A stretch of DNA of 63,681 nucleotides, filler included. It is 5 parts of 5 records of this genome, joined end to end, with 100 filler letters (N's around TTAATTAATTAA, not from the genome) between each part and the next. Parts side by side here need not be neighbours in the genome. Positions count along the whole stretch, not along the records: positions 52,379 to 63,681 come from SRR31156797_3752; 4 more parts are not named here. One strand, 5' to 3'. Both the position numbers and the translations under genes were made by a program. The notes beneath the pieces were generated by a model, which saw nothing but the letters and a program-made list of their open reading frames with translations, was not told the origin of the DNA and ran no database searches. Position 1 is the first letter of the stretch; every line of letters begins with the position of its first letter. Below are positions 43,903 through 63,681 of this stretch, piece by piece.

Positions 43903-44125
43903 CAGTTCAACACCTCAGAGGCATCTTTATAGGGAAACCATTTAAACGGCAACAAAAAAATAATTTTAGCCCGAATAATGACAAGCCGGACAAGCAACTA
44001 CCGCGACGACTCCACGACCAGAAGATGATGTTTTTTTATCATATCTTTAAAAGGAGGCCTATAAACGGCTTCTCTCTCTTTCTTCATTCGCCCTATAGTT
44101 GCCTCCTGTCACCTCGTCCCCTCAC

Positions 44126-44286: not shown

Positions 44287-44744
44287 CAGTATCTAATCTG
44301 GTCGGCATGGCGTTTTGGCGGCCGGCGCGGGCTAAAAATGAAAACGGTTGTTTGAGTTCTTGTGCATACGAGGTGAGAAGTGGTTGATTTCTTGAATAGT
44401 TACATTTTCTGCCATAAAAATGGCTCCTTAATACCAAATACATTTTGTTGCTGCTGTGAAGAAGAGTGCGAAAACGTCATGCCGGAAAAACACGCGCCCT
44501 ATGAGTTGATGGAGAATGCCGACGGCGACCAGGCGAGGAGGGATTAAAGAAGAATCTCAGAAAAATTACAGACTTATGAGAATTAGCTCGATCTGTCCGG
44601 AAATTTTTTTAAATATGTACCTTGGGATTCGAAAAATATAATTTCCTGGGCATCCAAAATAAGCATATGAGACTTGAATGTTGATGATAGAATATTATTG
44701 CCTGGCTGTTAACGCGACCGGGCGCCCGAATTTAGAATGGGCTG

Positions 44745-45407
44745 GTGATAGAAATGATCAACAGAGAAGGTCCTAAGATTATTATAAAGGAGGCGCTGAG
44801 TCCTGGTTCTGTAACCGGTTTGAAAAGGAAGATAGAAATGCTTGAAACACTGGTCAAACAAGATGAATACGAGCTGCCTTTCAATGGGACCTATTGGGTT
44901 GAACACGGTAATGTCATGGCCGGATGCTACCCCGGGTCCGCGGATATTGAGATGATGACGGCAAGGCTCGAAGCGATTATAAATGCTCGATTCGGGCTTA
45001 TCATCAACCTGACGATGCCCGATGAGATTCATTTTCAAGATAAGGAAATATCGCAATACGAATATTACATGAACAGGATGGCCGCGTTTGAGGGGCTTGA
45101 CCTGAGTTTTATCCGTTTTCCAATCAGGGATATGGGCGTGCCTTCGTACCATTTTATGAAAAAGATACTGGACACGATAGATCGGGCTCTTACTACTGGA
45201 AGGCGGGTTTACATACACTGTTGGAGCGGATGCGGTCGCACCGGGACTGTCGTCGGTTGTTATTTAATTCGCCATGGAGCGGCCACGCCTATAAACGTTT
45301 TAAATATGATTAAAATATTAAGGTCTTACGGGCGCATGACCACGGGAGCGTCTCCGGAAACGCCGGAGCAGGAAAACATGGTGCGCTCCTGGAGAATTGG
45401 CGAATAG
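44745..45407 (+). CDS. Dual-specificity / protein-tyrosine phosphatase family protein
   Basis: P-loop HCWSGCGRTG, FPIRDMGVP acid loop and SPETPEQ. Confidence 0.88.
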   Translation: MIEMINREGPKIIIKEALSPGSVTGLKRKIEMLETLVKQDEYELPFNGTYWVEHGNVMAGCYPGSADIEMMTARLEAIINARFGLIINLTMPDEIHFQDKEISQYEYYMNRMAAFEGLDLSFIRFPIRDMGVPSYHFMKKILDTIDRALTTGRRVYIHCWSGCGRTGTVVGCYLIRHGAATPINVLNMIKILRSYGRMTTGASPETPEQENMVRSWRIGE

Positions 45408-45660
45408 TCGTGCGCTGAATATACATGATTACCAAGCAGTGTTTGCATGATAACACGCCTGGGCGCCTGGCTATTATTCTATTTGGGCGCACCCATAAAC
45501 GGTTCATTTTCATTTATGGGACCGTTCCGAATCCGACCCTCCTGCTTCTTCGACTAGTTCGGTTCCCGGTGTCAGAAGGTTATTCGCCGAAGGCCTTGAG
45601 AAAGGCCGAACCGAACCCCACCGTCCAGCGAACGGGCTTTCGGTTCGGCGATAGTACTTA

Positions 45661-46020
45661 TTAGAAAAGTTTTGAACCCAACTTCGCCGAACGGGCGGGA
45701 GTCAAAAATGTGGCTTCACCGCTTTCGGCTTTTGGAAACTGAACGCCGATAACGAGGACTTCGGAAATTACGTCTCCAACTTGTCGCGGTTCAAAATTGA
45801 GCACTCCCATAACAAGCGCGTCCTTTATTTCATTGACTGGGTGTTGGGTAAATCGTCCGACGCTTGTTTTTACTCCGTATTTACCAAAATCGATTTTCAG
45901 TTTATAAGCCGGTTTGGGAGATGACGTTTCAGGTTCCACGGATACAACCCTTCCCAACCTTATATCCAACAAATCGAAAGTCTGTTCCTTCTGTACAGTA
46001 GATTTTGGTTCTTTAGACAT
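45661..46020 (-). CDS. CsaA/Trbp111-like tRNA-binding OB-fold protein
   Basis: FDLLDIRLGRVV, AYKLKIDFG and NFEPRQVG..SEVLV. Confidence 0.85.
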   Translation of the reverse strand: MSKEPKSTVQKEQTFDLLDIRLGRVVSVEPETSSPKPAYKLKIDFGKYGVKTSVGRFTQHPVNEIKDALVMGVLNFEPRQVGDVISEVLVIGVQFPKAESGEATFLTPARSAKLGSKLF

Positions 46021-46156
46021 GGTCTTTTTTATAATCGAGGCCCGAAACGAAAACCGGACAGGTCCCTTATAAGGCCTCTACCTTTCTTTTCTTTAGTTTG
46101 AGGGCTTCACCGAGCCCTTTTTCACATATCTCTTTTATTTTAAGTATGGACAGGCG

Positions 46157-47521
46157 CTAATCTATATATGTTTTTTCAAATACTAATCCTTTATAATGAC
46201 TCCGTTCCAAACTTCCCGGCTCGGCCCACAGAATTCTTGGCGTAATATTCAGCCTGCGCCCCATGGCGTGTATAATCTCGTTTTCCAGGGTCTGCAAATC
46301 GGACTCTTTAACATTGCCTGAGTGCTCAATCCTTATTTTAAGGGGTGGATTTACCCGCGGCGGCTTTTCGTCAAGAATAATTCTCAACTCGCCGGTAACC
46401 CTGGGGACAAATTCATTAACCACGCCCTTAATATGGCTTGGATAAACCATAATGCCCTTGACTTTAAGCATATTATCAAGCCGGCCGATTACCCTGTAAC
46501 GGAACCCGGTGGCGCCGCACGGACATGGCTCTGTAAATACCTGGTGTATGTCGCCGAAACCCTGGCGAACCTGAACGCAGCCTTCCCCTTCCAATGTGGT
46601 GAATATGGCCTCGCCGACCGCTCCGTGTTCCATGGCGACCGGTTCTTTGGTTTCCGGATCTACAAGCTCGTAATAACAGAGGTCGTCTCCCAACCAGTGC
46701 ATGCCCTGGTATTCATCATGGTCGCACGAACAACCGAATCCCGCTCCTGCATCATATATTCTGCATCCATATGCATTTTCGAGCTTGGTCTTTACCTCGG
46801 GTATACCGGCCCCTGGTTCTCCGCCGCAAAAAAGGGCTTTAAAACCCAAGCTTCCTGCCTCTTTTCCAATGAGCGCCGGCGCCTGCTCGATAAGGTGGGC
46901 GGCAAGAGACGGCGTTCCGGCAAAAATAGTGCCCTTGTACAATGACTGGGTCATCAGGATCCGCTCTGTTTTGGCCTCCGCGCCGACGGGCAGAATGGTC
47001 GCCCCTATTTTCTGCATACCCATAAGCGTCGGAACGCCGGCCACTACCATTGATAACGCGAAGCAAAACAGAATTCTGTCAAAAGACCGGACCCCGGCCC
47101 GCCAATAGGCCCTGGAAATTGCTTCTCCCCACATGTTTTCAACATCAAATCTGGTCAGAGGGTATGGCGTAGGCATGCCGGTCGTACCGGTAGTTGTGGC
47201 TATAACATCCAGATCGTGAACGCTGACCGGCATTATGCGGTCCAGGGCTTCCAGAATATCGCCGTTGCACCCGGCGACCAGGGCCATTAAAGCCTTTTTA
47301 TCGAAAATGCCGATCTTTTCCTTGAATTCATCAAAACTTCTTATCTTTTCCGGATCAAGTCCGCTCTGGTCAATCATTCGGCCGTAGAAATCGGATTTGA
47401 CTTTTAGCCTGGCCAACATTTTTCTCAATTTACCAAGCTGAATGACTTCCATCTCGGGCGTATTGAGAAGCAATTCCATATCCATATTCCAATAAGGCCG
47501 TTCAGCTTCCATCAGGGTCAC
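46157..47521 (-). CDS. Phenylacetate-CoA ligase (PaaK) family AMP-forming ligase
   Basis: TTTGTTGMP, CGGEPG, CPCG and GRLDNMLKVKGIMVYPS. The start may be the ATG at 47512. Confidence 0.88.
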   Translation of the reverse strand: MTLMEAERPYWNMDMELLLNTPEMEVIQLGKLRKMLARLKVKSDFYGRMIDQSGLDPEKIRSFDEFKEKIGIFDKKALMALVAGCNGDILEALDRIMPVSVHDLDVIATTTGTTGMPTPYPLTRFDVENMWGEAISRAYWRAGVRSFDRILFCFALSMVVAGVPTLMGMQKIGATILPVGAEAKTERILMTQSLYKGTIFAGTPSLAAHLIEQAPALIGKEAGSLGFKALFCGGEPGAGIPEVKTKLENAYGCRIYDAGAGFGCSCDHDEYQGMHWLGDDLCYYELVDPETKEPVAMEHGAVGEAIFTTLEGEGCVQVRQGFGDIHQVFTEPCPCGATGFRYRVIGRLDNMLKVKGIMVYPSHIKGVVNEFVPRVTGELRIILDEKPPRVNPPLKIRIEHSGNVKESDLQTLENEIIHAMGRRLNITPRILWAEPGSLERSHYKGLVFEKTYID

Positions 47522-47728
47522 CTGTCATCATTCTATAGTAATAAGCAAAAGTCGCTTTAAGGAATTAATAAGGTTCTCAATTTACAGGTTCTATTATCAA
47601 CCCGCCCATTTTGTAAAAAGGCAAAAGACATATTATTTGGATTATGCTTCGTTAATCCATCGGCCGCCTGCTGCTGTTATCAAATAAACAAGTTGAAATC
47701 GCGGCAGGATGTATTGCCGCAAAAATGA

Positions 47729-49651
47729 TTATTTGTCATTTCCTTTCAGTTCCAATTCGCTGAGCGGCTGCAGCCAAATGACATCGTAAGGTTCAAGGAT
47801 GATATCGAGCGCTCCGTTGTCGGCTATCCATTTTGCTTTACCCACCAGGTCTTTCCAGTATTTTTCTTCGATGCCTATTTCCGAGAGTTGAACTTTGGCG
47901 TGCACGGTTTTGTTGGCAATGTTTATAATGGAAAGGATATGTTGGTCGCCCTCGGGCGAAGAACGGAAAACAGTGAACAGTTCCGGGGCCAGTTTTAATA
48001 TTTTTTGCGGCCCGTTTGGGTGAAAAGGACGGTTCGTCGTTCTAATGGAACCGAGTCGCCCAAGCTTGCGTCCCAGGATTGATATTTGCGATCTGGGGTC
48101 TTCAAGAGCTTTATAGATGGCCTCACCGCTAAGAACCGTCCTGTTAATGGCCCTTTTGGATTTTGTATGCTTGACCGCTTCACGGTCGTTGCGGGAACCA
48201 AAGAGGCTGTGCAGGTAGATGCCGGGCACCCCCTGGAGCACCAGGCCGACCGCACGGGAGGCCACAAATCTTTTAACCTGGAATTCGACTGTTTCATCGG
48301 TGTCTTCCAAATTCATGGCGCTGTACCAGGTAATGTTTATTTCATAGGGAACGTCTTCCCCGTTTTCCCCTGTTTTATAAGAAATCAGACCGCCGTGCTC
48401 TCCGGCCTGCTCTACGATATAGTCAATTTCATTCTGGGTCAGAATGTTTTTGACAGCCATTAATCCAACGCCGTCATGGGAATCCAGGAAATTGAAAAAT
48501 GTAGTCGTATTGGATAGGTTTTCCAGGCCCGCCGCCCAATCGGAAAGCGCACCCGCGTTTTCCGTATAAAATGTGTGGAGCACAAGGGGCGGCAGGGCAA
48601 AATTGTAAACCATTTGCGCTTCATCGGATCCGCTTCCGAAATAAGAAATATTCTCATCATGAGGGACATTGGTTTCGGTAATAAGGGCGCACGTGGGAGC
48701 AACCGTATCCAGGACGTCTCTAAAAAGCTTGACTATTTCATGAGTCTGATCCAGGTGGACGCAGGGAGTCCCGGGTTCGGCCCATAAATAAGTGATGGCG
48801 TCCAGGCGTATGATATCGGCGCCGTGCCTGACGTAGTTCAAAAGGATCTCTATAACCCGCATAAGAACATTGGGATTATGGTAATTAAGATCGATCTGGT
48901 CGTCGGAAAAAGTGGTCCAGACGTATCTTTTACCGTTAATTGTATCAAACGGAGTCAGAATGTCCGATGTCCGGGGCCTGAATATGGCGCCCTTTTGTTC
49001 GGGCGTCAGAGCCGAGGTCGAGCCGTAATCGATAAAGAAGTCTCCGTAATATACATCCCCGTTTAAAAATTCCTGAAACCACCGGCTTTTGGCTGAAACA
49101 TGATTTATAACCCCGTCAAACATCAGCTGATACCGCTGTTCAAGGTCTTCGATATCGGCCCAGGTTCCAAGGTTGGGGTCGACGGCTTCAAAATCAATAA
49201 TGGAAAACCCGCGGTCCGACGAGTATGGAAAAAACGGGAGTATGTGCAGGGTGTTTATCGTTCTGTTTAAATAGGCGCCGCAAAATTTTGAAAGAGTGGT
49301 TAAGGGCGATCGGTCGTTTCCCCGGATAAGGTCGCCGTAGGTTATGAGAATGACATCCTCTTCGGTGAACCTTTCCGCCGGGCTGATGTCTTGTTCCCGC
49401 TTGATCATTATTTCAGGCTTGTGTGCGTAATAGACCCTTAAGACTCTTTCCAACTCGGGCATGAATTCCTCGGCCACGGCCTGGCCGTAAAGAAAAGATA
49501 ACCTGCCGAACATTCGTTCGTATGCAGCCGAGGGGATTTGAAAAAGCGGCTTGGAATAGTCCGGTTCCGGATTGTGAACCGAACTGGTTGTTTCATAACG
49601 ACGACGGATTACCTGGGAGTTGTTGTCCTTTTTGTTGGAATCACCTGACAT
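47729..49651 (-). CDS. GH13_18 sugar phosphorylase, glucosylglycerate-phosphorylase-type (start at 49651 inferred; track start 49690)
   Basis: HILPFFPYSSDRGF, DGVINH, RLDAI, ITETNVPH, SHDGVG and PYEINITW. Confidence 0.85.
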   Translation of the reverse strand: MSGDSNKKDNNSQVIRRRYETTSSVHNPEPDYSKPLFQIPSAAYERMFGRLSFLYGQAVAEEFMPELERVLRVYYAHKPEIMIKREQDISPAERFTEEDVILITYGDLIRGNDRSPLTTLSKFCGAYLNRTINTLHILPFFPYSSDRGFSIIDFEAVDPNLGTWADIEDLEQRYQLMFDGVINHVSAKSRWFQEFLNGDVYYGDFFIDYGSTSALTPEQKGAIFRPRTSDILTPFDTINGKRYVWTTFSDDQIDLNYHNPNVLMRVIEILLNYVRHGADIIRLDAITYLWAEPGTPCVHLDQTHEIVKLFRDVLDTVAPTCALITETNVPHDENISYFGSGSDEAQMVYNFALPPLVLHTFYTENAGALSDWAAGLENLSNTTTFFNFLDSHDGVGLMAVKNILTQNEIDYIVEQAGEHGGLISYKTGENGEDVPYEINITWYSAMNLEDTDETVEFQVKRFVASRAVGLVLQGVPGIYLHSLFGSRNDREAVKHTKSKRAINRTVLSGEAIYKALEDPRSQISILGRKLGRLGSIRTTNRPFHPNGPQKILKLAPELFTVFRSSPEGDQHILSIINIANKTVHAKVQLSEIGIEEKYWKDLVGKAKWIADNGALDIILEPYDVIWLQPLSELELKGNDK

Positions 49652-49792
49652 ATGACTTTCCATTCCTATAATGTATTGGTTTAATGACACTTACAGTCCA
49701 ATAAGTATATCATCGGCGCCATAGTCGGCACAAGAGTCAATGAAAAATGATGCGGAAGGCATTATATTGAATGACGCTTAAATAAAAAAGAA

Positions 49793-49831
49793 TTGACATC
49801 AGATATTGATAATGCTATTAGGTATTCCTAA
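49793..49831 (+). promoter_or_regulatory. Sigma-70 promoter overlapped by a DtxR/MntR-type palindrome
   Basis: TTGACA (49793-98), 17 nt, TATTAG (49816-21); TTAGG-tatt-CCTAA at 49818-49831. Confidence 0.65.
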
Positions 49832-49862
49832 ATAAGTTAGTACTTGTCTGGAAGGCTGCTTC

Positions 49863-50426
49863 ATGAAACCAAAAAAAACCGCGACTATAAGTAAAAAGCC
49901 CCTGACTTCAGTCATGGAAGACTACCTTGAGGCTATCGTGGAGTTGGAAGAAGAGAAGCGAGTCGTCAGGGTCAAGGATATTGCCAAAAAACTCAGCGTA
50001 AAAATGCCGTCCGTAACCAGCATGCTGAAAAATCTTAACGAAAAGGGACTGGTGAACTACAGGCAGTATGAATACGTTGAGCTGACCAAAAAAGGCGCGG
50101 AAGTCGGCAAGGAAATGAGGAAAAGGCACGAGGCCTTGCGGAAGTTTCTTACGGATATACTCAGGGTGGATTTCGAAACCGCGAATTCGGAAGCCTGCAA
50201 AATGGAGCACGCGCTAAGTTCCGGCACGCTCAAAAGCCTGACCGATTTTATGGATTTTATCCAGGCCTGTCCGCGGGCCGGAGAAGGTTGGCTGGATCAG
50301 TTTGCCCAATATCGGCAGCATGGGAAAAGACCCGAAAAGTGCGCGGAATTATCGGAAGAGTTTTCCTGCGAGCTCAAAAGCAAAATTGAGCAATTGAAAG
50401 GGTGCGACGGGTGCGGTCGGGATTGA
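49863..50426 (+). CDS. DtxR/MntR-family metal-dependent regulator with a Cys-rich tail
   Basis: MEDYLEAI, RVKDIAKKLSVKMPSVT, RH..LRKFL and EACKMEH. Confidence 0.92.
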   Translation: MKPKKTATISKKPLTSVMEDYLEAIVELEEEKRVVRVKDIAKKLSVKMPSVTSMLKNLNEKGLVNYRQYEYVELTKKGAEVGKEMRKRHEALRKFLTDILRVDFETANSEACKMEHALSSGTLKSLTDFMDFIQACPRAGEGWLDQFAQYRQHGKRPEKCAELSEEFSCELKSKIEQLKGCDGCGRD

Positions 50427-50559
50427 AGTCGTTAAGGCTGATTCCTTGGCATTAAGGACCGATGGCAATATAAATTAATTGATATTGGAATAACTTAAGG
50501 CGCAATTGGGCTGGTTGATCAAACCGGGTTTCGATGCGGCTTTTTTATGGAGATGCAAG

Positions 50560-50573
50560 TTAGATATGTCTAA
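50560..50573. promoter_or_regulatory. Second DtxR-type palindrome
   Basis: TTAGA-tatg-TCTAA, 22 nt upstream of the ATG at 50596. Confidence 0.55.
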
Positions 50574-50595
50574 TAGCGGTAGAGGGTATTAAAAT

Positions 50596-50889
50596 ATGGA
50601 ATCTGACAAACAAAACCTGATCGGCGCGATTGACGAAAGTATAAGCAAACTTCACGAAAGTATAGACACTCACAGAAACCTGGTTTCTTCAATTGTTAAA
50701 GATGAGCTTGATGAAAAAACCTTGAGCGCCTTTTTGGAAATCTGTCCTTTCAAACCAAGGGAGGTCAGGCTTAAGGAAGCCATTAAGGAAGCCATCGACG
50801 TTCTGGAAGAAAGCAGAAAGGCTTTTAAGTCGAAGAAGTTGGAAATGCTCCGGAAAAAACTCACCTTGGTTCTAATGGACAACGAGTAG
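50596..50889 (+). CDS. Small helical hypothetical protein
   Basis: GAGGG RBS; amphipathic helices ending EAIDVLEESRKAFKSKKLEMLRKKL. Confidence 0.7.
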   Translation: MESDKQNLIGAIDESISKLHESIDTHRNLVSSIVKDELDEKTLSAFLEICPFKPREVRLKEAIKEAIDVLEESRKAFKSKKLEMLRKKLTLVLMDNE

Positions 50890-50944
50890 GCGGATGGATG
50901 GGTCAACAAGGATCGTTCAGGGATTCGGAAAAGGAGGGTGATTA

Positions 50945-52198
50945 ATGAATCAGTTTGGTACAGTGACCGTCAAATTAAACCCGGACGCTGTTTTATGCGA
51001 TCACGGAATTGATGATGGTCTAACAGCCGCGGAGAATCGGTTGAGGTTTTGGGAAGTAAGTCATTTTTTTACCTGTCCGGTTGTTGGCATGTGTCTTACC
51101 ATGACCGAGCAGAAGCAGCTTCTAAGAAAAGCCGGCATTGCATACAGGAAAATGACGCCGTTTGAGATTCACGAGGAGCTTGTCGGATGCTCGGAAAACG
51201 AGAATCGCCTCTCCAGAAAAGCAGATAATATGCTTGAGCGGAAATTTCGCAAGCAATCAGCTTCGCTGAGAGAGCTTGACGAAAATGAGTTTATGGAGCA
51301 CTGGAAGACTGCTTTTGCCGGCGGAGATTATGGCGCCGTTCTATGGGGCGCGGCGACAAGGTCCGATCTGTCGCCTGACAGCCGGAGGAGTATTTTCGGC
51401 GACGTTCACATGGCCATGCATCTCAGCGCCGGGAACACCGCAAGCCTTGAGCGGAAATTGTCTGCGGAAATTGAAAAAACTGAAGAATTAAACCTCAAAA
51501 ACCAGGAACTTACAAAATCTTTGAGAAGCTTGAAGAAAGAAAAGCTAAGACTGGAAAAGCGCCTGAATGCATCATCCGCGGAAATAGCGGCCCTGGAAAA
51601 AGAATTATCAAAAAAGGAAGAGGACAATCCTACGGTTGCAAGTGCGGAAGAATCCGACCTGGAGAAGGAGAACTTTGTTTTACGCGGAGAACTGAACTGT
51701 ATGGAAGACATGCTGCACGAATCCGAAGACAAGGTAGTATTGCTTAAGCAGGAAAGCCGGAAATTGTCCTCCAGGCTTGACGAACAGGTTGCAATAAACC
51801 GTCAATTGAAAGAAAAGGCCAAGGAGATTATCAGGGATGTATCTCATATGAATCGTTGCGATACAACCTGTCCTTCCTACGACTTATGTAAAAAGCGAAT
51901 TTTGATTGTCGGCGGTATAACGAAAATGGAATGGCTGTACCGTCAGTTGATTGAAACCAGCGGCGGCGTTTTCGATTATCACGACGGCTATATGGCCAAG
52001 GGCTCCAAGGGGCTGGAAAACAGGCTTAAACGAGCGGATATCGTTCTTTGCCCGGTCAATTGCAATAGCCACGCCGCCTGTTCCATGGTCAAGAACTTGG
52101 GCAAAAAACACAAAAAGACGGTTCACATGATGCCCAGTTCAAGTTTAAGCGCTATTAACCAGTTTATATCCGATACCGGCACTCCGGTTGTGGGCTAA
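50945..52198 (+). CDS. DUF2325-domain coiled-coil protein
   Basis: N-terminal FWEV...CPVVGMCLT, central coiled coil, C-terminal ILIVGG...HDG...ADIVLCPVNCNSHAAC..VK; AGGAGG RBS. Confidence 0.8.
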   Translation: MNQFGTVTVKLNPDAVLCDHGIDDGLTAAENRLRFWEVSHFFTCPVVGMCLTMTEQKQLLRKAGIAYRKMTPFEIHEELVGCSENENRLSRKADNMLERKFRKQSASLRELDENEFMEHWKTAFAGGDYGAVLWGAATRSDLSPDSRRSIFGDVHMAMHLSAGNTASLERKLSAEIEKTEELNLKNQELTKSLRSLKKEKLRLEKRLNASSAEIAALEKELSKKEEDNPTVASAEESDLEKENFVLRGELNCMEDMLHESEDKVVLLKQESRKLSSRLDEQVAINRQLKEKAKEIIRDVSHMNRCDTTCPSYDLCKKRILIVGGITKMEWLYRQLIETSGGVFDYHDGYMAKGSKGLENRLKRADIVLCPVNCNSHAACSMVKNLGKKHKKTVHMMPSSSLSAINQFISDTGTPVVG

Positions 52199-54277: not shown

Positions 54278-55675
54278 ATGACTTATATCGGAATTATAAT
54301 TGTTTTTTTATTAGGGTTTAGTATTCTACAGTTTATAAATGAGAAATTTTCACTACTTGAAATATTAGGATTTTCTTATCTGCTTGGAATTGGAGCAACC
54401 ACTCTTGTTATGTTTTTGTTGAATGTTTTTGGAACAACCATTACTAAAAATAACTTGCTTATATTCAGTATTCTTTTATCTGTGGGTTTAAATTACCGCT
54501 ATATATTACAGCCAAAAACAATTAGAATGCAAATAGAAGCTATCAAAAAAGATGATTTTTTCTTTTTTGGAAATTTCAGTTTGGTATGGTTGATTTTTTT
54601 AGCAGCAATTGTATTTATTCTTTATGGAATTACCAGTAAAAACTTGTATTGGCCAACTCTTGCTTCCGATACAGTAAGTTCTTTTGATCTATTTGCAAAA
54701 GCAATTGCAAAAGAAGGAAAAATATTAAATAGTTTAATCTACGATAAAGGAGTCGGTTATGGAGCTGCGTATCCACCCTTATATTCTTTAAGTCTGGCTT
54801 ATTCCTATATTTTTGGATTTGAAATTTCTAAAATTATTCCGGCACTTTTCTTTATTTCATTTATTATCTCATTTTATGCATTATTGATAAGAAATGTATC
54901 CTCTTTAGCGGCAATTGTAGTTACCTTTTTAATGATGATATCACCTGAACTGCTGGCTCAAAGTGCAATAAATACAACTAGTGTACCTCAGGCAATTTAT
55001 GGCTCGTTAGGAATAATTGCAATATTTTCCTGGCATCAAACAAAACAAAATAAATATTTGATTCTCGCCGTTTTATTGCTTGCATTGAATGGCTGGATTC
55101 GAAGTGAAGGAATTGTATATATTGGAGGAGCATTTGTTTTTTATTTTGTTGTACAATTTCAAAAGAAAGAATATCTTAAACCCTTTGTTTTCTTCATCCT
55201 TACCTTAATTCCATTTATTGGTTGGCAAATATTTCTATTTGTAAATTCAGAATTAATGGGTCCATTTGTTGAGGTAAACATTCATATTCTGCCAAATACG
55301 AATTATGAAAATATAAAGACAATTTTGTATTATACTAAATTTAATTTTTTACAAAATGGTTATTATGGTATTACCGTTTACGTTTTCGCAATGGCATTCA
55401 TTTTAAACATAATTGGTTTTATTAAGCATAAAGAAAATTTTCTTAAAGTTATTGTTATTCTGCTCACTTTATTAGCATATCTATACCTGTTAAATCAAAT
55501 TGAATCGCATGGTGCATCGTTGGAGGCTTTTATGAGAAATTCTGCAAAAAGATTCTTTTTCGGAATAGTAATATTAATGTGGTTTTATTTTGTTAATGTA
55601 GGTTATGTCAAAAATGTTTTTGCATTCTTAGAAAGGTTCATTGCCAAACCAAATAATAAAAAATTAAATGACTAA
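54278..55675 (+). CDS. Multi-TM GT-C-fold (ArnT/PMT-like) glycosyltransferase
   Basis: About 13 TM helices; YPPLYSL and WIRSEG motifs; adjacent to a GT2 gene. Confidence 0.6.
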   Translation: MTYIGIIIVFLLGFSILQFINEKFSLLEILGFSYLLGIGATTLVMFLLNVFGTTITKNNLLIFSILLSVGLNYRYILQPKTIRMQIEAIKKDDFFFFGNFSLVWLIFLAAIVFILYGITSKNLYWPTLASDTVSSFDLFAKAIAKEGKILNSLIYDKGVGYGAAYPPLYSLSLAYSYIFGFEISKIIPALFFISFIISFYALLIRNVSSLAAIVVTFLMMISPELLAQSAINTTSVPQAIYGSLGIIAIFSWHQTKQNKYLILAVLLLALNGWIRSEGIVYIGGAFVFYFVVQFQKKEYLKPFVFFILTLIPFIGWQIFLFVNSELMGPFVEVNIHILPNTNYENIKTILYYTKFNFLQNGYYGITVYVFAMAFILNIIGFIKHKENFLKVIVILLTLLAYLYLLNQIESHGASLEAFMRNSAKRFFFGIVILMWFYFVNVGYVKNVFAFLERFIAKPNNKKLND

Positions 55676-56558
55676 AATTAAAGAAGGTTTATTAACAATT
55701 GTTATTCCTGCATTTAACGAAGAACAATCATTGTCGTATTTTTTACCTCGGGTTATAGAATTTTGTGAAAAGAAAAAGTTTAAACTTATTATAGTGAATG
55801 ATGGCTCTGCTGACAATACAAAAGAAATAATATCTAATTATCTGGAGAAAGATTTTGTTACTCTTATAAATCATAAAGTAAACAAGGGTTATGGTGCAGC
55901 TATAAAAACAGGTATTAGTACAACAAAATCAGAATATGTTATTACAATTGATGCTGATGGTCAACATTTTCTTGAAGATATTTCAAAACTATACAATAGG
56001 ATAATTGAAACTGATGCTGATTTGATTATTGGAAGTCGTGTTGGTCAGAAAGCCGCTTCTATTTACAGGGGGATTGGGAAAAAACTTATTTATTTAATTG
56101 CAAAGTTTTTAATCCGATTTAACATTAAGGATTTAAACTCCGGGATGAAAATTTATAATACAGCTCTTGCAAAAAAATATATTCAACTATGTCCCGATTC
56201 AATGCCGTACAGCGATATAATTGCGTTAGTATTTATAAATTTCAGGCATTTAGTTTTAGAAGAACCGATTAAAATTAAACAAAGGATACAAGGTGAAAGC
56301 ACAATTGGAACGATGACTGCAATTGAAACGGTTAAAGAAATATTGAATATTGTTGTGTTGTTTAATCCTTTTAAAGTCTTTTTCTATACTGCACTTTTAC
56401 TGTTTTTTGTCTCACTGCTTTGGGGAATTCCAATATTGGTTGCAGGAAATGGAATAAGCGGGGCAACCTTATTAGGAATAATTACCAGTTTATTAATTTT
56501 TTTAATTGGATTAGTTGCTGAACAAATATCTCAGCTTCGCAAAGAAAGATTTAAATAA
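55668..56558 (+). CDS. GT2 polyprenol-phosphate glycosyltransferase (DPM1/GtrB-like)
   Basis: IVIPAFNEE, VNDGSADNT, NKGYGAAIKTG and IDADGQH; two C-terminal TM helices. Confidence 0.92.
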   Translation: MTKIKEGLLTIVIPAFNEEQSLSYFLPRVIEFCEKKKFKLIIVNDGSADNTKEIISNYLEKDFVTLINHKVNKGYGAAIKTGISTTKSEYVITIDADGQHFLEDISKLYNRIIETDADLIIGSRVGQKAASIYRGIGKKLIYLIAKFLIRFNIKDLNSGMKIYNTALAKKYIQLCPDSMPYSDIIALVFINFRHLVLEEPIKIKQRIQGESTIGTMTAIETVKEILNIVVLFNPFKVFFYTALLLFFVSLLWGIPILVAGNGISGATLLGIITSLLIFLIGLVAEQISQLRKERFK

Positions 56559-56681: not shown

Positions 56682-58544
56682 TTAATTTAATGTTCGAATT
56701 TTAATACCGTCTTTATATAAACTGCGATTTAAAATTACGCCTTCTTTTGATGTCTGAGTTATTTCGCCGTTCATTTTATCGTTGCTCCAGGTTCCAGACA
56801 GAACATCACCATTAGATAAAATAAGTTTTCCTTCTCCTTCTTTTTTATCGTCCTTCCAATTCCCTTCAAAACGATTTTTATTTTCCCAAACATATATTCC
56901 AAATCCTTCCTTTTTGTCATCTTTAAATTCACCCCAATAGCCAAGGTCTGGCCTGAATTCCAATAAATAACTATTTGAATTCCCAACTCTTTTAACGGAT
57001 TTAAATTTTGCAGGGTATCTTTTAATTGCCGGATAAAGGTAACGGGAGGTCGATGAGTACCCTAATTCATCAAGAACTACATAACTAACATTTGAATTGA
57101 TTAATCTTTCTATAAGTTGTTCCTTGTCGGCGGTTTGCGAATAGCCGGTTGAATATTTTCTGGAAAAGATATAAAACAGCTCTGCTTTACGGCATGATAC
57201 AACAGCATCATTCGGGATGTTTTTTTGTGCCCAAATGGCAAGTTCGAAATAATTCTTATAATTCGGGTGATAAGGAAATTTGCTTTGTTCGTTCATCCTG
57301 TCGATTGGAGGCTTAAAAGCAGAGACTGTAATTAATAATAGTAACGGTAAAATTACTTGAATAACAAACTTATTTTGGAAATGTATTTTAGATGAAATTG
57401 CTTTCATAAAAGTATAAATTCCACTACCTATTAATAATAATAATAAAGGGATAACTGGTAAAATAAACCGGGGGCCAAACCAAACCTCAGGCCATAATAG
57501 CATAATTCCAAAATTTCCTAACAAATAAGAGAAAATTATAGGGCGGTATGTCTTTAAAGTAATCAGTCCATAAACAATAGCAATTACTATTAAAATTCCA
57601 ATCACCCATTCTTTAGTAATAATTGGATCGGTATATTTTACATTTATAAAACTTAAAGTTCCACTAGGTATTTCTCGGGTTACATAACGTTCGAAATTTT
57701 TAAAAATACGGACAAACCAATCTTGAAATTCCATTGTTCCTAATTCATGCCGGTAGGGATTTTTATACATCAATGAATTCATATAACTTCCTGCTGAGCT
57801 GGAGCTTATCGATTTTTCACGTAAATACCAAGGCAGACACAGCAAAATAAAACCTCCAACAAAACCAGCGAGATATTTCCATTCTTTCTTTAAAATAAAA
57901 ACCAGAAAAATACCACCAAATAAAGCAATACCGGTTGTGCGGATATGGTAACTAAAAGCCACACTGATAACCATCAGATAGAAATACGGACTTTTAAAGA
58001 ACGGCTTATCATAATCAAGTATAATAAGAAAATATAATCCCAGTGCCGAAAAGAACAAGTAAGGAATTTCACTCATCATAATTGTACTTGATTTTAAAAG
58101 GTGAGAATTTAACAAGATAAGTAAAGAGATAACAAATGAAAGGTGTACGTTTTTAAGTACTTTTAAAAATAGTAAAAACAGAAGGATGACTGAAATAATA
58201 AGAAAAAAACCATTCGCCGATTTTATGGTTGAAATATCACTTGAAAAAACTTTCATTACCATACTTATAATTAACGGATACCCCGGAGGAAAACGACTTG
58301 TCGGGGGCTTTTCTGGAACACGAATGTCGGAATAACCATCTCCGTTTGCAATTGAGGTTCCTAATAAATAATACTGAATGTTATCTCCGTTTAAGTCAAT
58401 TTTTTCATCGAATATGGTAGGATATATTTTAAAAAATGCAACAATCAGAATTAGGATATAAAAAAGAGTTATTATTTTTCCTGTACTATAATCTTTTTCC
58501 TGTATCGTTGTTGATTCCCTCTTTTGAAGTTTGTAGGATTTCAT
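56682..58544 (-). CDS. GT-C-fold glycosyltransferase with C-terminal MORN repeats
   Basis: GDNIQYY..G.SIA.G.GY, RFPPGYPL, MSEIPY and HIRTTG; C-terminal YWGEFKDDKKEGFG, FEGNWKDDKKEGEG and LSGTWSNDKMNG repeats. Confidence 0.75.
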   Translation of the reverse strand: MKSYKLQKRESTTIQEKDYSTGKIITLFYILILIVAFFKIYPTIFDEKIDLNGDNIQYYLLGTSIANGDGYSDIRVPEKPPTSRFPPGYPLIISMVMKVFSSDISTIKSANGFFLIISVILLFLLFLKVLKNVHLSFVISLLILLNSHLLKSSTIMMSEIPYLFFSALGLYFLIILDYDKPFFKSPYFYLMVISVAFSYHIRTTGIALFGGIFLVFILKKEWKYLAGFVGGFILLCLPWYLREKSISSSSAGSYMNSLMYKNPYRHELGTMEFQDWFVRIFKNFERYVTREIPSGTLSFINVKYTDPIITKEWVIGILIVIAIVYGLITLKTYRPIIFSYLLGNFGIMLLWPEVWFGPRFILPVIPLLLLLIGSGIYTFMKAISSKIHFQNKFVIQVILPLLLLITVSAFKPPIDRMNEQSKFPYHPNYKNYFELAIWAQKNIPNDAVVSCRKAELFYIFSRKYSTGYSQTADKEQLIERLINSNVSYVVLDELGYSSTSRYLYPAIKRYPAKFKSVKRVGNSNSYLLEFRPDLGYWGEFKDDKKEGFGIYVWENKNRFEGNWKDDKKEGEGKLILSNGDVLSGTWSNDKMNGEITQTSKEGVILNRSLYKDGIKIRTLN

Positions 58545-58717: not shown

Positions 58718-60205
58718 ATGGGTATAATAATAAAACAATCAATTCGGGGAAGTATCTGGTCATATCTTGGCTTGATTGTAGGTTATCTGAATGTAGGTTT
58801 TATTATGCCTAATTTTTTTCGTACTGATCAGATTGGATTGGTGCAATTGTTTACCGCCCTGACCGTTATTTTCACCAATTTTTCAACGTTAGGTTTTAGA
58901 AGTGTAATTAACCGAATGTTCCCGGAATTTAGGAATAAAGCAAAGAGTCATAATGGATTTTTATTTCTTGCTTTGGCTACCGGGCTGCTTGGTTTTTCTT
59001 TGAGTGTGATTGCATTCTTTATTTTTAAACCGCAAATCATAGAATCAAATATTGAGAAATCCCCTTTGTTGGTTGAATTCATATTTTTACTTATCCCATT
59101 ATTTTTCTTTCGGGTTCTTTTTAAAATGCTCGATGAATACAATAAAGTACTTTTTGATGCTATAACCGGGACATTTTGGAACGATTTTATTCATAAGTTC
59201 ATTAATCTCATTCTGATTTTATTATTTGCATTTCAGTTAATCGGGTTCAGGCAATTCTTTTTTGGATTTATTGTATCGCTTAGTTTACCCGCATTTCCGT
59301 TAATATATGTTTTAATTAAACGGGGAGAGTTTAGTTTAAAACCAGATTTTAAGTTTTTGAACCGGCCATTAATACGTGAAATGATTACTGTTGCTGCTTA
59401 TGGATTAATAAATGGCTTAAGCGGAGTTTTAACCAGTAATATCGATAAACTTTTGGTTAACCGTTTTCTTTCGCTCGACCTGGTTGGTATTTTTAGTGTT
59501 TGTGCTCTTTTTGCAACGGTTATTGGAATACCTTCGCGGTCGGTTGTGAAAATCTCAACCGGGATAATTGCGCAAGCATGGAAAAAAAATAATAAAGCAC
59601 ATATTCAGGAAATATATTCAAAAGCCAGTTTAACACAAACTATTTTGGGAGCACTAATTTTTATCGGAATTTTAGTGAATCTCGATAATATATTTACAAT
59701 ATTACCCGAAGTGTACAGCCAGGGGAAATGGGTATTAATATTATATTCGATGGGTATGCTGGTTCGGGTTTCTAATACGACCAGCGGTACCATTATCGGA
59801 ACATCGAAATATTATCGTGTACTTTCTTTAATTATTGCTACGCAAATTATTTATACTGTTGGATTCCATTTTTTATTAATACCCAAATGGGGGATTATTG
59901 GAGCTGCCGTTGCCGTATTTCTGACATATCTGATTCGAACAACTATTGTAGTAGGGTTTTTAAAAATTAAAATGGGTTTTTTCTGTTATAATTATAAGCA
60001 CTTAATTGCATTGGCCTTTGCATTAATTGCGTTTTGTGCAGGTTATTTTATTCCGAATACTGGAGTATTAATTCCCGATATCCTTATAAAAAGCGGGGCA
60101 GTAGTTATAGTTTATGCCTTTTTGGTATTAAAATTCAAGGTTTCTGAAGATATTAACCAATTATATAAAAATATATTAATCCGGATTCGAAGATTTATTA
60201 AATAA
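58718..60205 (+). CDS. Wzx-like oligosaccharide flippase (MOP superfamily)
   Basis: MGIIIKQSI start, about 14 TM helices, NIDKLLV and LIPKWGIIGAA. Confidence 0.85.
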   Translation: MGIIIKQSIRGSIWSYLGLIVGYLNVGFIMPNFFRTDQIGLVQLFTALTVIFTNFSTLGFRSVINRMFPEFRNKAKSHNGFLFLALATGLLGFSLSVIAFFIFKPQIIESNIEKSPLLVEFIFLLIPLFFFRVLFKMLDEYNKVLFDAITGTFWNDFIHKFINLILILLFAFQLIGFRQFFFGFIVSLSLPAFPLIYVLIKRGEFSLKPDFKFLNRPLIREMITVAAYGLINGLSGVLTSNIDKLLVNRFLSLDLVGIFSVCALFATVIGIPSRSVVKISTGIIAQAWKKNNKAHIQEIYSKASLTQTILGALIFIGILVNLDNIFTILPEVYSQGKWVLILYSMGMLVRVSNTTSGTIIGTSKYYRVLSLIIATQIIYTVGFHFLLIPKWGIIGAAVAVFLTYLIRTTIVVGFLKIKMGFFCYNYKHLIALAFALIAFCAGYFIPNTGVLIPDILIKSGAVVIVYAFLVLKFKVSEDINQLYKNILIRIRRFIK

Positions 60206-60485: not shown

Positions 60486-61184
60486 ATGAAAATTCGATTT
60501 TATTCAAAAGCGCTTTGGGAAACTGAGAACATAGTTAATGCTGTTAGAACGAAATTTAAAAATGATAAAACCAAAGTATTTGGAATAGGAAGAAACAAAA
60601 CCGGGACAACATCGTTGAAAAAAGCCATGCAAAAACTTGGGTATGTTGTCGGGAATCAGCATTCTGCCGAATTAATGTTTGACGACTGGGTAAAACGAGA
60701 TTTTAACAAGATTATCAGATATTGTCATACAGCTCAGTTCTTTCAGGATTTGCCATTTAGTTTGCCCGATACATTTGCAGTTATAGATAAAAGTTTTCCG
60801 GGGAGTAAATTTATTTTAACTGTTCGGGATTCTCCGGAGCAATGGTATAATTCCATTACAAGTTTTCATGCAAAACTTTGGGGAAAAAACGGGAGAATTC
60901 CAACAAAAGAAGATCTACAAAATGCAACTTATTTATTTAAAGGATGGCCTTGGCATACGAATAGAGCTATCAATAATACTCCTCCAGACGATCCCTATAA
61001 TAGAGATTTATTAATTAAAAATTATATTAACCACAACCAGAAGGTTATGGAATATTTTAAAGATAGACCCAACGATTTATTGTTGTTAAACGTAGCAGAA
61101 AAAGGGGCTTTTAAAAGACTTGCTATCTTTGTTGGAAAGGAAGTGAAAATTGAAGAATTTCCCTGGGAAAATAGAACTTTGTAG
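60486..61184 (+). CDS. Sulfotransferase (PAPS-dependent family)
   Basis: 5'-PSB KVFGIGRNKTGTTSL and 3'-PB KFILTVRDSPEQWYNS. Confidence 0.85.
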   Translation: MKIRFYSKALWETENIVNAVRTKFKNDKTKVFGIGRNKTGTTSLKKAMQKLGYVVGNQHSAELMFDDWVKRDFNKIIRYCHTAQFFQDLPFSLPDTFAVIDKSFPGSKFILTVRDSPEQWYNSITSFHAKLWGKNGRIPTKEDLQNATYLFKGWPWHTNRAINNTPPDDPYNRDLLIKNYINHNQKVMEYFKDRPNDLLLLNVAEKGAFKRLAIFVGKEVKIEEFPWENRTL

Positions 61185-61193: not shown

Positions 61194-62300
61194 ATGAAAA
61201 AGATACCTGTAACTCAACCTTTTTTACCTCCATTAGAAGAGTTTCAATTATTCCTAGAAACCATTTGGGAAAGAAAATGGTTAACTAACAATGGAGTTTA
61301 TCACATTGAGTTTGAGAAATTGTTATGTGAATATCTGGGCGTTAAATATATTTCGCTTTTTTCTAACGGGACACTTGCACTTATAACTGCATTGAAAACA
61401 TTAGATGTTTCGGGAGAAGTAATTACAACACCATATAGTTTTATTGCAACAACAAACGCCCTGTTTTGGAATAATATTTTACCGGTTTTTGTAGATATTG
61501 AACCTAAAACTTTTAACATCGATCCGGAAAAAATTGAAGATGCAATAACGGAGAATACATCGGCTATTTTACCTGTACATGTTTATGGTAATCCGTGTAA
61601 TGTTGAAGCAATTCAGCAGATTGCAGATAGACATGGGTTAAAAGTTATTTACGATGCATGTCATACATTTGGTGTAAAAATAAAAGATATACCAGTGCTA
61701 CAATTTGGCGATTTATCTGTAATGAGTTTTCATGCGACAAAGGTTTTTAACACGTTTGAGGGAGGTGCTGTGATTTGTCACGATGAAAAAACAAAAAAGA
61801 AACTCGACTATTTAAAAAATCATGGAATTTTAGGTGAACAGGAAGTGGCAGAACCAGGTACAAATGCCAAAATGAACGAGTTTCAGGCAGCGTTAGGAAT
61901 TTTGCAATTGAAATATGTAGATACACTTATTGAAAAAAGGAAAAGGATAACAGAAATTTACAGGAATGAATTCAAAAATATAAAAGGTATTATTTGTTTG
62001 AACGATATTCAGGATACAAAACATTGCTATTCCTATTTTCCTGTTCTAATTGATGCAAAAAAGTATGGAATATCCAGAGATGTATTATTTGAAAAATTAA
62101 AATCGAAACATATAATCTGTAGAAAATATTTTTATCCGCTTATTAGTCGGTTTTCTGTATATAGAGAACTGCCATCGGCAAAAACAGAGAATTTACCTGT
62201 TGCGTCGGATGTGTCTGATCGTGTACTTTGTTTGCCATTGTATCCCGACTTGGAACGGGAAGAACTTAATAGAATAATTGAAGTAATAAAAGATGTATAA
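61194..62300 (+). CDS. DegT/DnrJ-family sugar aminotransferase, VioA-like
   Basis: IPVTQPFLP...WLTNNG, NGTLAL, PVHVYG, YDACH and PLP-lysine SFHATKVFNTFEGG. Confidence 0.92.
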   Translation: MKKIPVTQPFLPPLEEFQLFLETIWERKWLTNNGVYHIEFEKLLCEYLGVKYISLFSNGTLALITALKTLDVSGEVITTPYSFIATTNALFWNNILPVFVDIEPKTFNIDPEKIEDAITENTSAILPVHVYGNPCNVEAIQQIADRHGLKVIYDACHTFGVKIKDIPVLQFGDLSVMSFHATKVFNTFEGGAVICHDEKTKKKLDYLKNHGILGEQEVAEPGTNAKMNEFQAALGILQLKYVDTLIEKRKRITEIYRNEFKNIKGIICLNDIQDTKHCYSYFPVLIDAKKYGISRDVLFEKLKSKHIICRKYFYPLISRFSVYRELPSAKTENLPVASDVSDRVLCLPLYPDLEREELNRIIEVIKDV

Positions 62301-62324
62301 TGTGTTAATTTAAATAATTTAGTT

Positions 62325-63188
62325 ATGAAACTAGTCGTTAATTTTACACCAACCGGCATGATTCCAACAAAGGAGATGACATCTCATGTTCCGGTTTCTG
62401 TTTCCGAAATTGTTGAAGATGTGCACCGGGCAATGGAAATAGGAATTTCGATGGTTCACTTGCATGCAAGAGACGAAATAACCGGTAAACCTACTTATCG
62501 TGCCGAGGTGTATGGTAAAATTATAGAAGGGATAAGGAAATATTCGAAAGAATTAATATTGTGTGTTTCGCTTAGCGGAAGAGGGATAAAAGAATTTAAA
62601 CATCGTGCATCTCCATTACAACTGGAAGGAGATTTGAAACCAGATATGGGAAGTCTGACATTAAGTTCCTTAAATTTTAATAAAACAGAGAGCATGAATT
62701 CTCCGGAGATGATAAAAATGCTGGCTGAAGAAATGAAAAAGAAAGGAATATTGGCTGAATTGGAAGCTTTTGATTCTGGAATGATAAACTATGCAAAATA
62801 CCTGGAAGCAAAGGGACTTTTGCAAGCTCCACATTATTTTAATTTGTTACTGGGTAACATTGCCTGTGCCCAGGCCGATTTGTTGCATGCAGGTATAATG
62901 GTTCGCGATTTACCAGAAAAATCGGTTTGGAGTTATGCCGGAATTGGAAATGCACAGTTAATGATGAATTCAATTGCAATTGCTGCCGGTGGAGGAGTTC
63001 GGGTAGGTTTGGAGGATAACATTTATTACGACCAAAAAAGAACACGATTGGCAAGTAACAGTGAATTGTTACAACGAATTCATACCATAGCTAAAGCAAA
63101 CGAAAGAGAAGTGATGAGCCCAAAAGAGTTAAGGCAAATTTTACATCTAAATCCCGGAAATGGAAGTTATGGCCGTAATTTCGATTAA
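62325..63188 (+). CDS. BKACE / 3-keto-5-aminohexanoate cleavage enzyme family (DUF849)
   Basis: TPTG...PVSVSEIVED, metal-binding HLHAR, ELEAFD and RVGLEDN. Confidence 0.9.
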   Translation: MKLVVNFTPTGMIPTKEMTSHVPVSVSEIVEDVHRAMEIGISMVHLHARDEITGKPTYRAEVYGKIIEGIRKYSKELILCVSLSGRGIKEFKHRASPLQLEGDLKPDMGSLTLSSLNFNKTESMNSPEMIKMLAEEMKKKGILAELEAFDSGMINYAKYLEAKGLLQAPHYFNLLLGNIACAQADLLHAGIMVRDLPEKSVWSYAGIGNAQLMMNSIAIAAGGGVRVGLEDNIYYDQKRTRLASNSELLQRIHTIAKANEREVMSPKELRQILHLNPGNGSYGRNFD

Positions 63189-63207
63189 TTAATATCTACA
63201 GAAAAAC

Positions 63208-63681
63208 ATGATGGAAAATTTAACCACAATTAAAGAGGTAAATATACTTGGTTACAGTGGAAGTTATCTTTCGTTGCTTTTTGAGTCGTTATCTGCAAAT
63301 GGTTTTAAAGGAACAGTAAATATCTTTATGAATGACCATATAAAAAGAGCAGATAATACATTTGAAACAAGTTTAGATTATAAGATTTTCCACTTTTCAG
63401 AAGTTGATCCACCTCCTAAAACAGGATTTATTTTATGCAGTAATAAACCATCCACCAAATTATTTTTAGTTAATTTTTTTCAGGAAAAATGGAATATTGA
63501 AATAAGTCAAATGTTATCATTTTGGCATCCGTCGAGTATTATTGCAAGCTCAGTAAAACCCGGTCACGGATTTTATGTGGAACCCTTATCAGTGGTTTCG
63601 CCTTATGTTAAAATTGGTAATTGTGTAACTGTTAACAGAAACTGTTCAGTGGGGCATCATAATATTCTTCACGATTTTTGT
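63208..63681 (+). CDS. PglD/NeuD-like hexapeptide sugar N-acyltransferase, 3'-truncated (not in the ORF track)
   Basis: Manual translation MMENLTTIKEVNILG...FWHPSSIIASSVKPGHGFYVEPLSVVSPYVKIGNCVTVNRNCSVGHHNILHDFC; the frame is open to the window end. Confidence 0.8.
   Translation, partial: MMENLTTIKEVNILGYSGSYLSLLFESLSANGFKGTVNIFMNDHIKRADNTFETSLDYKIFHFSEVDPPPKTGFILCSNKPSTKLFLVNFFQEKWNIEISQMLSFWHPSSIIASSVKPGHGFYVEPLSVVSPYVKIGNCVTVNRNCSVGHHNILHDFC

Follow-up and report, generated by a model that had tools for sequence, protein, structure and literature searches.

A BKACE-family gene paired with an N-acyltransferase gene: a candidate acyl-CoA supplier for amino-sugar acylation

Background

At the 3' end of the stretch of DNA analyzed here (63,681 nucleotides in five joined parts, hereafter "the window"), a gene for an enzyme of the BKACE (DUF849) family is located between genes for a DegT-family sugar aminotransferase and a NeuD/PglD-like hexapeptide (LbH) N-acyltransferase. 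Work on the BKACE family has treated its members as enzymes of catabolism and as parts for synthetic pathways: what, then, is such an enzyme doing among genes for sugar tailoring? A first-pass annotation of the window had proposed that this BKACE is anabolic, and that it supplies an unusual acyl-coenzyme A (acyl-CoA), whose acyl group the adjacent transferase puts on a nucleotide-linked amino sugar of a surface glycan.

The answer favored here is of the same kind: the BKACE would supply an acyl-CoA to the adjacent transferase, acting on an amino sugar. Taken as a whole, this reading appears on balance probable, if narrowly so. The outcome of a survey of related loci, the existence of natural fusion proteins and the features that separate the window protein from Kce, which cleaves 3-keto-5-aminohexanoate in lysine fermentation, all support a functional coupling of BKACE and acyltransferase and an anabolic role.

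Conservation of the BKACE-acyltransferase pair

The last four plus-strand open reading frames (ORFs) of the window encode a sulfotransferase, the DegT aminotransferase, the BKACE and the transferase, and are separated by gaps of 9, 24 and 19 bases. Family matches agree with the first-pass description of the last three as a tightly spaced, co-oriented run. The arrangement is real and not due to chance, because it recurs in related loci. What is observed directly comprises the order of the genes, the families to which they are assigned, the conservation of the pair and the existence of fusions.

The survey of gene neighborhoods suggested at the first pass was carried out by a scan of species genomes, which returned 448 BKACE relatives; the best 80 loci, showing 67-82% identity and distributed over more than 10 phyla, were kept. 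Neighbor counts cover 79 of these best 80 loci, where all ORFs up to five genes from the BKACE were clustered. The ORF caller lost the BKACE of one locus (L062), and displaced a probable hexapeptide gene of another (L018) by an opposite-strand ORF: because of these losses, adjacency counts are slightly low.

An acyltransferase-type gene, either LbH or GNAT, is found directly beside the BKACE gene in 65 of the 79 loci, and within five genes in 68. In the closest relatives, tblastn located a hexapeptide gene beside the BKACE gene and, no more than a few kb away, a DegT gene. A repeated cassette, composed of Wzx, DegT, a WbqC-like protein, a hexapeptide transferase, BKACE and a GT2 glycosyltransferase, was recognized in Prolixibacteraceae/Draconibacterium metagenome-assembled genomes, by Pfam annotation of 136 ORFs from 14 loci. 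Variants of the cassette are present in Pirellulales, Syntrophorhabdus and others, some of them with ATP-grasp ligases, GNATs or sulfotransferases. As anticipated by the first-pass annotation, the nearest BKACE homologues are encoded in glycan cassettes, with genes for hexapeptide transferases and DegT proteins beside them.

The partner genes belong to at least four families: LbH hexapeptide proteins (33 loci), a GNAT of 214 amino acids (22 loci), a GNAT of 363 amino acids (8 loci) and weak GNAT/FemAB-like proteins (6-7 loci); the first two predominate at the positions flanking the BKACE gene. Cultured strains with the GNAT-paired form include Psychroserpens mesophilus, Algibacter marinivivus, Jejuia pallidilutea DSM 21165 and Flavivirga aquimarina KCTC 52353. 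The 214-residue family is assigned to GNAT at 22-27 bits (cutoff 20.7), the protein atlas agreeing only on "GNAT"; the 363-residue family is likewise a GNAT. NCBIfam provides no specific name for these two families, for the family labeled c11, for WbqC or for the unassigned ORFs of the cassettes.

Glycan-type neighbors are present in 31 of the 79 loci; among the loci with an adjacent hexapeptide gene, also 31 in number, 17 have them. Since glycan genes are found in so few of the loci, what stays constant is the pairing of BKACE with acyltransferase, for which the glycan cassette represents one setting. Two further observations concern the neighborhoods. As in the window, sulfotransferase and DegT genes are immediate neighbors in a further two BKACE loci (sulfotransferase genes L044:8074-8853 and L012:1037-2038). 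Three Chloroflexota loci (L041, L043, L051) contain a BKACE without an acyltransferase neighbor, flanked by Radical_SAM_N2 and VTT-domain proteins on one side and by PAP2 and a GT2-GtrA polyprenyl-phosphate glycosyltransferase on the other.

A tree with 83 rows places the window BKACE in one group with nine Bacteroidota rows (10 rows in all, SH-aLRT 95). All nine Bacteroidota loci have an adjacent hexapeptide gene and a WbqC-like gene, and seven have a DegT gene; in the other two, the contigs end shortly upstream. Partner types cluster on the tree: the hexapeptide label requires 11 changes, the mean for shuffled labels being 25.2.

The two functions are also found on a single polypeptide. P0124 and P0125 (535 amino acids, 69% identical to the window BKACE) are composed of BKACE, PglD_N and LbH domains, in the same order as the two genes of the window; the LbH part of P0124 is distant from the window piece (29% identity over 58 residues). 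An exhaustive search of representative sequences returned 3063 matches at E <= 0.001. Of these, 18 long representatives were scanned: ten are GNAT-BKACE fusions, with the GNAT domain first in eight and last in two, while the other eight include one with a DegT domain, one with a class I/II aminotransferase domain and six without further Pfam domains.

Fusions with other enzymes were noted as well: P0127 is a BKACE-aldo/keto-reductase fusion (817 amino acids), P0250 contains a class I/II aminotransferase (753 amino acids), and P0141 and P0126 contain DegT-like domains (632 and 638 amino acids), P0126 being a BKACE-DegT fusion. For the reductase and aminotransferase partners, a possible target is a second carbonyl, on either the substrate or the product.

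Residues of the BKACE protein

The window protein is a full-length BKACE, matched by PF05853 along the entire profile (positions 1-274 of 274; 265.1 bits, cutoff 24.8). It falls under the cutoff for every NCBIfam equivalog: the best match is the Kce equivalog NF052387 (233.5 bits, cutoff 382), and the 3-oxoadipate:acetyl-CoA acetyltransferase equivalog reaches 189.5 bits (cutoff 350). Its closest solved relatives are the uncharacterized DUF849 structures 3NO5, 3FA5 and 3CHV, followed by Kce; identity to solved members, as estimated from alignments, is about 35-40%.

The metal ligands, described at the first pass as an intact HxH motif and a Glu, are confirmed by alignment to Kce (PDB 2Y7D): His45, His47 and Glu230 correspond to His46, His48 and Glu230 of Kce, whose Zn-ligand numbering, as we assume it, is consistent with the numbering of the PDB chain being offset by 6 residues. 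Ser82, Glu147, Arg226 and Asp231 are also retained. Glu147, invariant in all 79 relatives, is the equivalent of E143 in Kce and of E171 in BKACE15, the latter reported to be essential for catalysis (PMC11961710).

Other positions differ from Kce. Glu14 of Kce, reported to be needed for binding the 5-amino group of the substrate (PMC10470551), is replaced by Ile13 in the window BKACE and in nearly all 79 relatives, which points to an uncharged substrate; for comparison, the triacetate enzyme is described as having Trp16 (PMC10470551). Tyr145 of Kce (Tyr173 in PdKce), two residues past the catalytic Glu, is Phe149 in the window protein and Phe in all 79 relatives. Segment 82-86 reads S-L-S-G-R, in place of S-T-G-G-A in Kce.

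The putative active-site positions and the S82-L-S-G-R86 segment are near-invariant in the 79 relatives, irrespective of partner type. The S84/R86 pair is common to all ten GNAT fusions, to the two DegT fusions and to the reductase and LbH fusions, at identities as low as about 38%. The wider alignment also contains four representatives of the Kce-like kind, which instead carry Glu (position 13), Thr-Gly (positions 83-84) and Ala (position 86). A near-invariant putative active site, shared across partner types, fits one product feeding different transferases. Ser84, Arg86 and Gln211 are polar residues that do not vary, and might serve to bind either a hydroxyl or a carboxylate.

Assigning a specific substrate from pocket residues was tried and abandoned: only an uncharged type in general fits, and the protein is not assignable to a BKACE group. 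An N-malonyl-sugar was also considered as substrate and set aside, because acetyl-CoA fills the sole entry channel (PMC11961710), with no room for a nucleotide sugar.

The aminotransferase and the acyltransferase

The DegT protein is covered by PF01041 at profile positions 6-359 of 360, and contains SFHATK with Lys183, which we take to be the pyridoxal-phosphate (PLP)-lysine motif. Among NCBIfam models it scores highest against the DesI-type dTDP-4-dehydro-6-deoxyglucose aminotransferase (301 bits, cutoff 650), in keeping with the "VioA-like" label of the first-pass annotation, which is fair; PseC, at 253 bits, is also below its cutoff. The protein is probably a 4-aminotransferase. No equivalog cutoff that would specify the exact sugar is reached.

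The transferase gene of the window encodes an N-terminal piece of 158 residues, without a Pfam match; it scores under the 160.8-bit cutoff of TIGR03570 (NeuD/PglB/VioB). The piece aligns end to end with full-length hexapeptide partners, including the RNCSxGHH motif, and stops about 60 residues short. One such full-length partner, at L009:1994-2659, is most similar to the structures of PglD, PglB-ATD, PerB and VioB, with E-values from 5.5e-17 (PglD) to 7.7e-14. PglD_N and Hexapep domains are seen in the relatives and in the fusion P0124; in the window, the protein is cut off with the greater part of its LbH region still to come. A predicted complex of the L009 BKACE with its hexapeptide partner scored 0.00, without controls, and is uninformative either way.

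Proposed role of the BKACE

The DegT, BKACE and LbH transferase genes would form one sugar-tailoring cassette. The product of the DegT enzyme would be a 4-amino-4,6-dideoxyhexose linked to a nucleotide. As a TIM-barrel enzyme dependent on Zn, the BKACE would condense a small, uncharged beta-keto acid with acetyl-CoA, generating acetoacetate and a non-acetyl acyl-CoA, and the adjacent PglD/NeuD-like transferase would move the acyl group to the amino group of the sugar or, alternatively, to an amino acid first joined to the sugar amine. The BKACE would thus be a dedicated acyl-CoA supplier, in the role of AntA in the anthrose operon.

Candidate acyl groups are 3-hydroxybutyryl, glyceryl, formyl or other short acyls. 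Among documented BKACE products are formyl-CoA (PMC11961710), acetoacetyl-CoA (PMC10470551) and glyceryl-CoA (bioRxiv 205583). The acceptor in the window locus is most likely an NDP-4-amino-4,6-dideoxyhexose, since a transferase of the PglD/PerB/VioB kind adjoins a DesI-like aminotransferase. Pairing, fusions and invariant pocket would be explained most simply if the BKACE made one particular non-acetyl acyl-CoA, for use by whichever N-acyltransferase is adjacent.

A broader proposal is more doubtful, but is offered tentatively. BKACEs with the S-x-S-G-R segment, together with LbH or GNAT N-acyltransferases, separate or fused, might be a widespread make-and-transfer module, acylating envelope amines in more than 10 phyla with a group not supplied as a CoA ester by central metabolism (for example glyceroyl, formyl via formyl-CoA, hydroxy- or amino-butanoyl); for marine Flavobacteriaceae, this implies a conserved unit of two genes that is located away from glycan loci.

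Several points weigh against the role proposed for the window locus. In the GNAT-paired loci (214- or 363-residue families) a glycan-type neighbor is found within five genes in only one case, and is absent from the other 29 of the 30: the acceptor, for this reason, need not be a sugar everywhere. The first-pass claim of an anabolic BKACE coupled to the transferase is favored by the pairing, the fusions and the non-Kce features, while the link to glycans is not general. No gene for making a beta-keto acid recurs in the cassettes, which leaves the source of this substrate unexplained, nor does any gene for the disposal of acetoacetate. By Pfam annotation, neither a nucleotidyltransferase nor a 4,6-dehydratase is visible between 52 kb and the window end, which itself falls inside the transferase gene. 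The full-length L009 relative of the transferase, too, is under the TIGR03570 cutoff (130.3 bits, cutoff 160.8). Finally, all the support is genomic in kind: it is from genomic data that we infer the reaction's direction, the acyl group and its acceptor, and the use of the BKACE product by the transferase.

A further objection comes from Phe149, as the Tyr normally found in its place is said to be common to all BKACEs (PMC12871164). The weight of this objection is unclear: 3NO5, 3FA5 and 3CHV likewise feature Phe at this column, and Tyr occurs in no row shown of the wider alignment. Because Phe is general at this column in this part of the family, the Tyr rule seems too broad.

The WbqC-like protein and alternative explanations

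Some cassettes include a further candidate enzyme of amino-sugar modification. The WbqC-like protein (PF08889), located at L009:2689-3444, is also encoded in L001-L008, L010 and L011. A structural model of it (pLDDT 82.7) was compared with known structures in a wide structural search, where the top match was the bacillithiol ligase BshC (4WBD; Z 14.0 over 237 of 251 residues), followed by class I aminoacyl-tRNA synthetase cores and by MshC (Z 6.8). The comparison of the WbqC profile with PDB sequences gave nothing meaningful, Foldseek gave nothing at E <= 0.001, and no functional study of WbqC was found in the literature. Both BshC and MshC are ligases that attach cysteine to an amino sugar. 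The fold of the model suggests that WbqC is an ATP-dependent ligase, joining an amino acid or other carboxylate to a (4-)amino sugar; the BKACE-fed transferase could then act on the amine of the attached amino acid.

Such a ligase would be central to a different scheme, where the BKACE runs in reverse, joining acetoacetate and an acyl-CoA into a longer beta-keto acid, such as 5-hydroxy-3-ketohexanoate, which a WbqC-like or ATP-grasp ligase attaches to the amino sugar, resulting in side chains of the 3,5-dihydroxyhexanoyl type. A side chain of this type is reportedly present on a Flavobacterium O-antigen. The BKACE reaction is reversible, and has been assayed in reverse (PMC11961710); WbqC-like genes, with their BshC-like predicted fold, are found in 11 of the 79 loci, and ATP-grasp genes in the cassettes of L006, L012, L018 and L044. 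The constant partner, however, is a CoA-dependent acyltransferase, adjacent in 65 of the 79 loci, and not a ligase; the fusions carry LbH and GNAT domains, and no ligase family is among the recurrent neighbors of GNAT-paired loci. We therefore regard the reverse scheme as unlikely.

Still less probable is a chemistry like that of BsfD, in which a beta-keto acid is C-acetylated and decarboxylated to a beta-diketone, without a retro-Claisen step or a new acyl-CoA. Its appeal lies in Phe149: in BsfD the canonical Tyr is replaced by Phe166, and the reaction is reported to halt after acetyl transfer (PMC12871164). Yet, Phe being general at this column in this part of the family, Phe149 is not readable as a BsfD-like sign. 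BsfD is also described as having an insertion of about 20 residues after strand 3, carrying Arg91 (PMC12871164), where the window protein differs from Kce by only four residues; the BsfD structures (9ZSC) match weakly, in two pieces, at 91 bits; and the coupling to acyltransferases would be left unexplained.

That the protein is an ordinary catabolic BKACE, either Kce or an enzyme of some other nutrient pathway merely located beside glycan genes, is very improbable: although Kce is its best NCBIfam match and close relatives are publicly named "3-keto-5-aminohexanoate cleavage protein", the score is under the Kce cutoff, the Glu14 position is occupied by Ile, acyltransferase pairing and fusions are unexpected for a catabolic enzyme, and no lysine-pathway family (kamA, kamDE, kdd, kal) turned up among the annotated window ORFs or the 218 annotated neighbor ORFs of 34 loci, no search by name having been made for these families. 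The first-pass annotation had named standard Kce behavior, combined with a transferase using only acetyl-CoA, as a ground for abandoning its proposal; the cutoff and the Glu-to-Ile change both separate the window protein from Kce.

Gene order and other features of the window

The predicted genes at the 3' end of the window are reported in Table 1. The first-pass placement of the cassette downstream of a flippase and a sulfotransferase is borne out for the sulfotransferase; the flippase call is weak, because its Polysacc_synt score barely exceeds the cutoff.

Table 1. Genes predicted at the 3' end of the window, with coordinates along the window, strand and family matches
Predicted product	Coordinates	Strand	Evidence
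GT2, similar to polyprenyl-phosphate glycosyltransferases	55668-56558	+	PF00535 105.9 bits
GT-C/PMT-like membrane protein, C-terminal MORN repeat	56682-58544	-	PF02493 MORN 41.7 bits; PF02366 PMT 21.9 bits (cutoff 22.7)
Wzx-like flippase (weak call)	58718-60205	+	PF01943 Polysacc_synt 29.7 bits (cutoff 28.2)
Sulfotransferase	60486-61184	+	PF17784 Sulfotransfer_4 78 bits; 9 bases upstream of DegT gene
DegT-family PLP sugar aminotransferase, 368 amino acids (P0003)	61194-62300	+	PF01041 DegT_DnrJ_EryC1 355.1 bits
BKACE/DUF849-family enzyme, 287 amino acids (P0001)	62325-63188	+	PF05853 265.1 bits
NeuD/PglD-like hexapeptide (LbH) N-acyltransferase, N-terminal 158 amino acids	63208-63681, open at window end	+	TIGR03570 44.9 bits

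The top NCBIfam matches of the GT2 protein are PpgS (88.9 bits) and an ArnC-type transferase (71.8 bits), both far below their cutoffs. The gene for this ArnC/PpgS-like GT2 adjoins that for the PMT-like GT-C membrane protein with the MORN repeat. The pair hints at a modified sugar carried on polyprenyl phosphate, in the manner of the Arn pathway.

The region of the BKACE locus has a G+C content of about 30%. Promoter-like sites (22) are not in excess over shuffled controls, which average 24.5. Terminator-like sites number six (mean of shuffles 2.6, standard deviation 1.6), all of them within ORFs and none in intergenic gaps. A search of the window against Rfam gave no matches.

Elsewhere in the window, the stretch 43000-52000 has a G+C content of 44-50%, against about 30% on both sides, and contains genes for DUF554, DSP-phosphatase-like, AMP-binding, alpha-amylase, DtxR-type repressor and DUF2325/crescentin-like proteins: a foreign island is one possible explanation, an assembly join another. 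ORFs at 5942-6421, 6662-7036, 7593-8039 and 32904-33755 match only partial Pfam domains (Peripla_BP_4, positions 11-156 of 258; NIF3, 1-94 of 256; MFS_1, 17-155 of 347; PGM, domains I-II only), and look like gene fragments, due to decay or to sequencing frameshifts. An 827-residue protein with nucleotidyltransferase, LbH and phosphoglucomutase/phosphomannomutase domains, encoded at 39942-42425 (minus strand), stands at the head of a cluster of glycogen type, whose other members are GH57, a GalT-like gene, starch synthase and phosphorylase. A protein of 302 residues with collagen triple-helix repeats is encoded at 16579-17487 (minus strand).

Comparison with known systems

Amino-sugar N-acylation with a dedicated acyl-CoA supplier is a known type of system, of which a BKACE supplier would be a new form. 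If the proposed role is correct, a large, strongly conserved branch of the BKACE family, tied or fused to N-acyltransferases, would have an anabolic role in decorating the cell surface, and would provide candidates for the so far unassigned genes behind unusual N-acyl groups of bacterial amino sugars. The natural fusions represent a one-polypeptide system for this chemistry, and the BshC-like fold predicted for WbqC a second testable assignment in the same cassettes. The literature search returned no paper on the pairing of BKACE and acyltransferase; a matching group may already be contained in the data of Bastard et al. 2014 or Bellinzoni et al. 2011. New BKACE context clusters are mentioned in the available part of the NetSyn preprint, without acyltransferase terms.

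With the known members of the Kce/BKACE family (PF05853; Kce structures 2Y7D-G, the DUF849 structures 3NO5, 3FA5 and 3CHV, BKACE15 structures 8RIO, 8RIP and 9HNF), the window protein shares the TIM-barrel family, the Zn ligands, the catalytic Glu and the active-site Arg and Asp. It differs from Kce in having Ile for the amino-binding Glu, S-L-S-G-R for S-T-G-G-A and Phe for Tyr145, and in its setting, which appears anabolic and not catabolic, with relatives paired or fused with N-acyltransferases.

The Arn pathway for aminoarabinose includes ArnB, ArnC and ArnT. The window locus likewise features a DegT aminotransferase, an ArnC/PpgS-like GT2, a GT-C/PMT-like protein and a putative N-acylation step. 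Its proteins, however, score far below the Arn equivalog cutoffs, and neither a formyltransferase nor a deformylase is seen: the likeness is one of layout only.

BsfD, from flavophos biosynthesis, is another DUF849 enzyme with a biosynthetic function, and also features Phe at the Tyr position (PMC12871164). In contrast with the role proposed for the window BKACE, it is described as acting on a phosphonate substrate, as carrying the Arg91 insertion and as forming no acyl-CoA (PMC12871164).

The NDP-4-amino-sugar N-acetyltransferases PglD, PerB, VioB and PglB-ATD provide the closest structures to the L009 partner, and the P0124 fusion contains PglD_N followed by LbH. Those enzymes use acetyl-CoA, while the hexapeptide partners described here are under the NeuD-family cutoff and tied to a BKACE.

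A parallel in cassette logic is the anthrose operon, antABCD: one of its enzymes is a sugar 4-aminotransferase, another an LbH N-acyltransferase, while an enoyl-CoA hydratase is the dedicated supplier of a non-acetyl acyl-CoA. AntD is cited as an N-acyltransferase using 3-hydroxy-3-methylbutyryl-CoA (PMC8141488). The gene content of the window locus fits the same logic, with the BKACE in the presumed role of supplier; the two systems differ in that the candidate supplier of the window is a BKACE, and its transferase belongs to the PglD/NeuD class.

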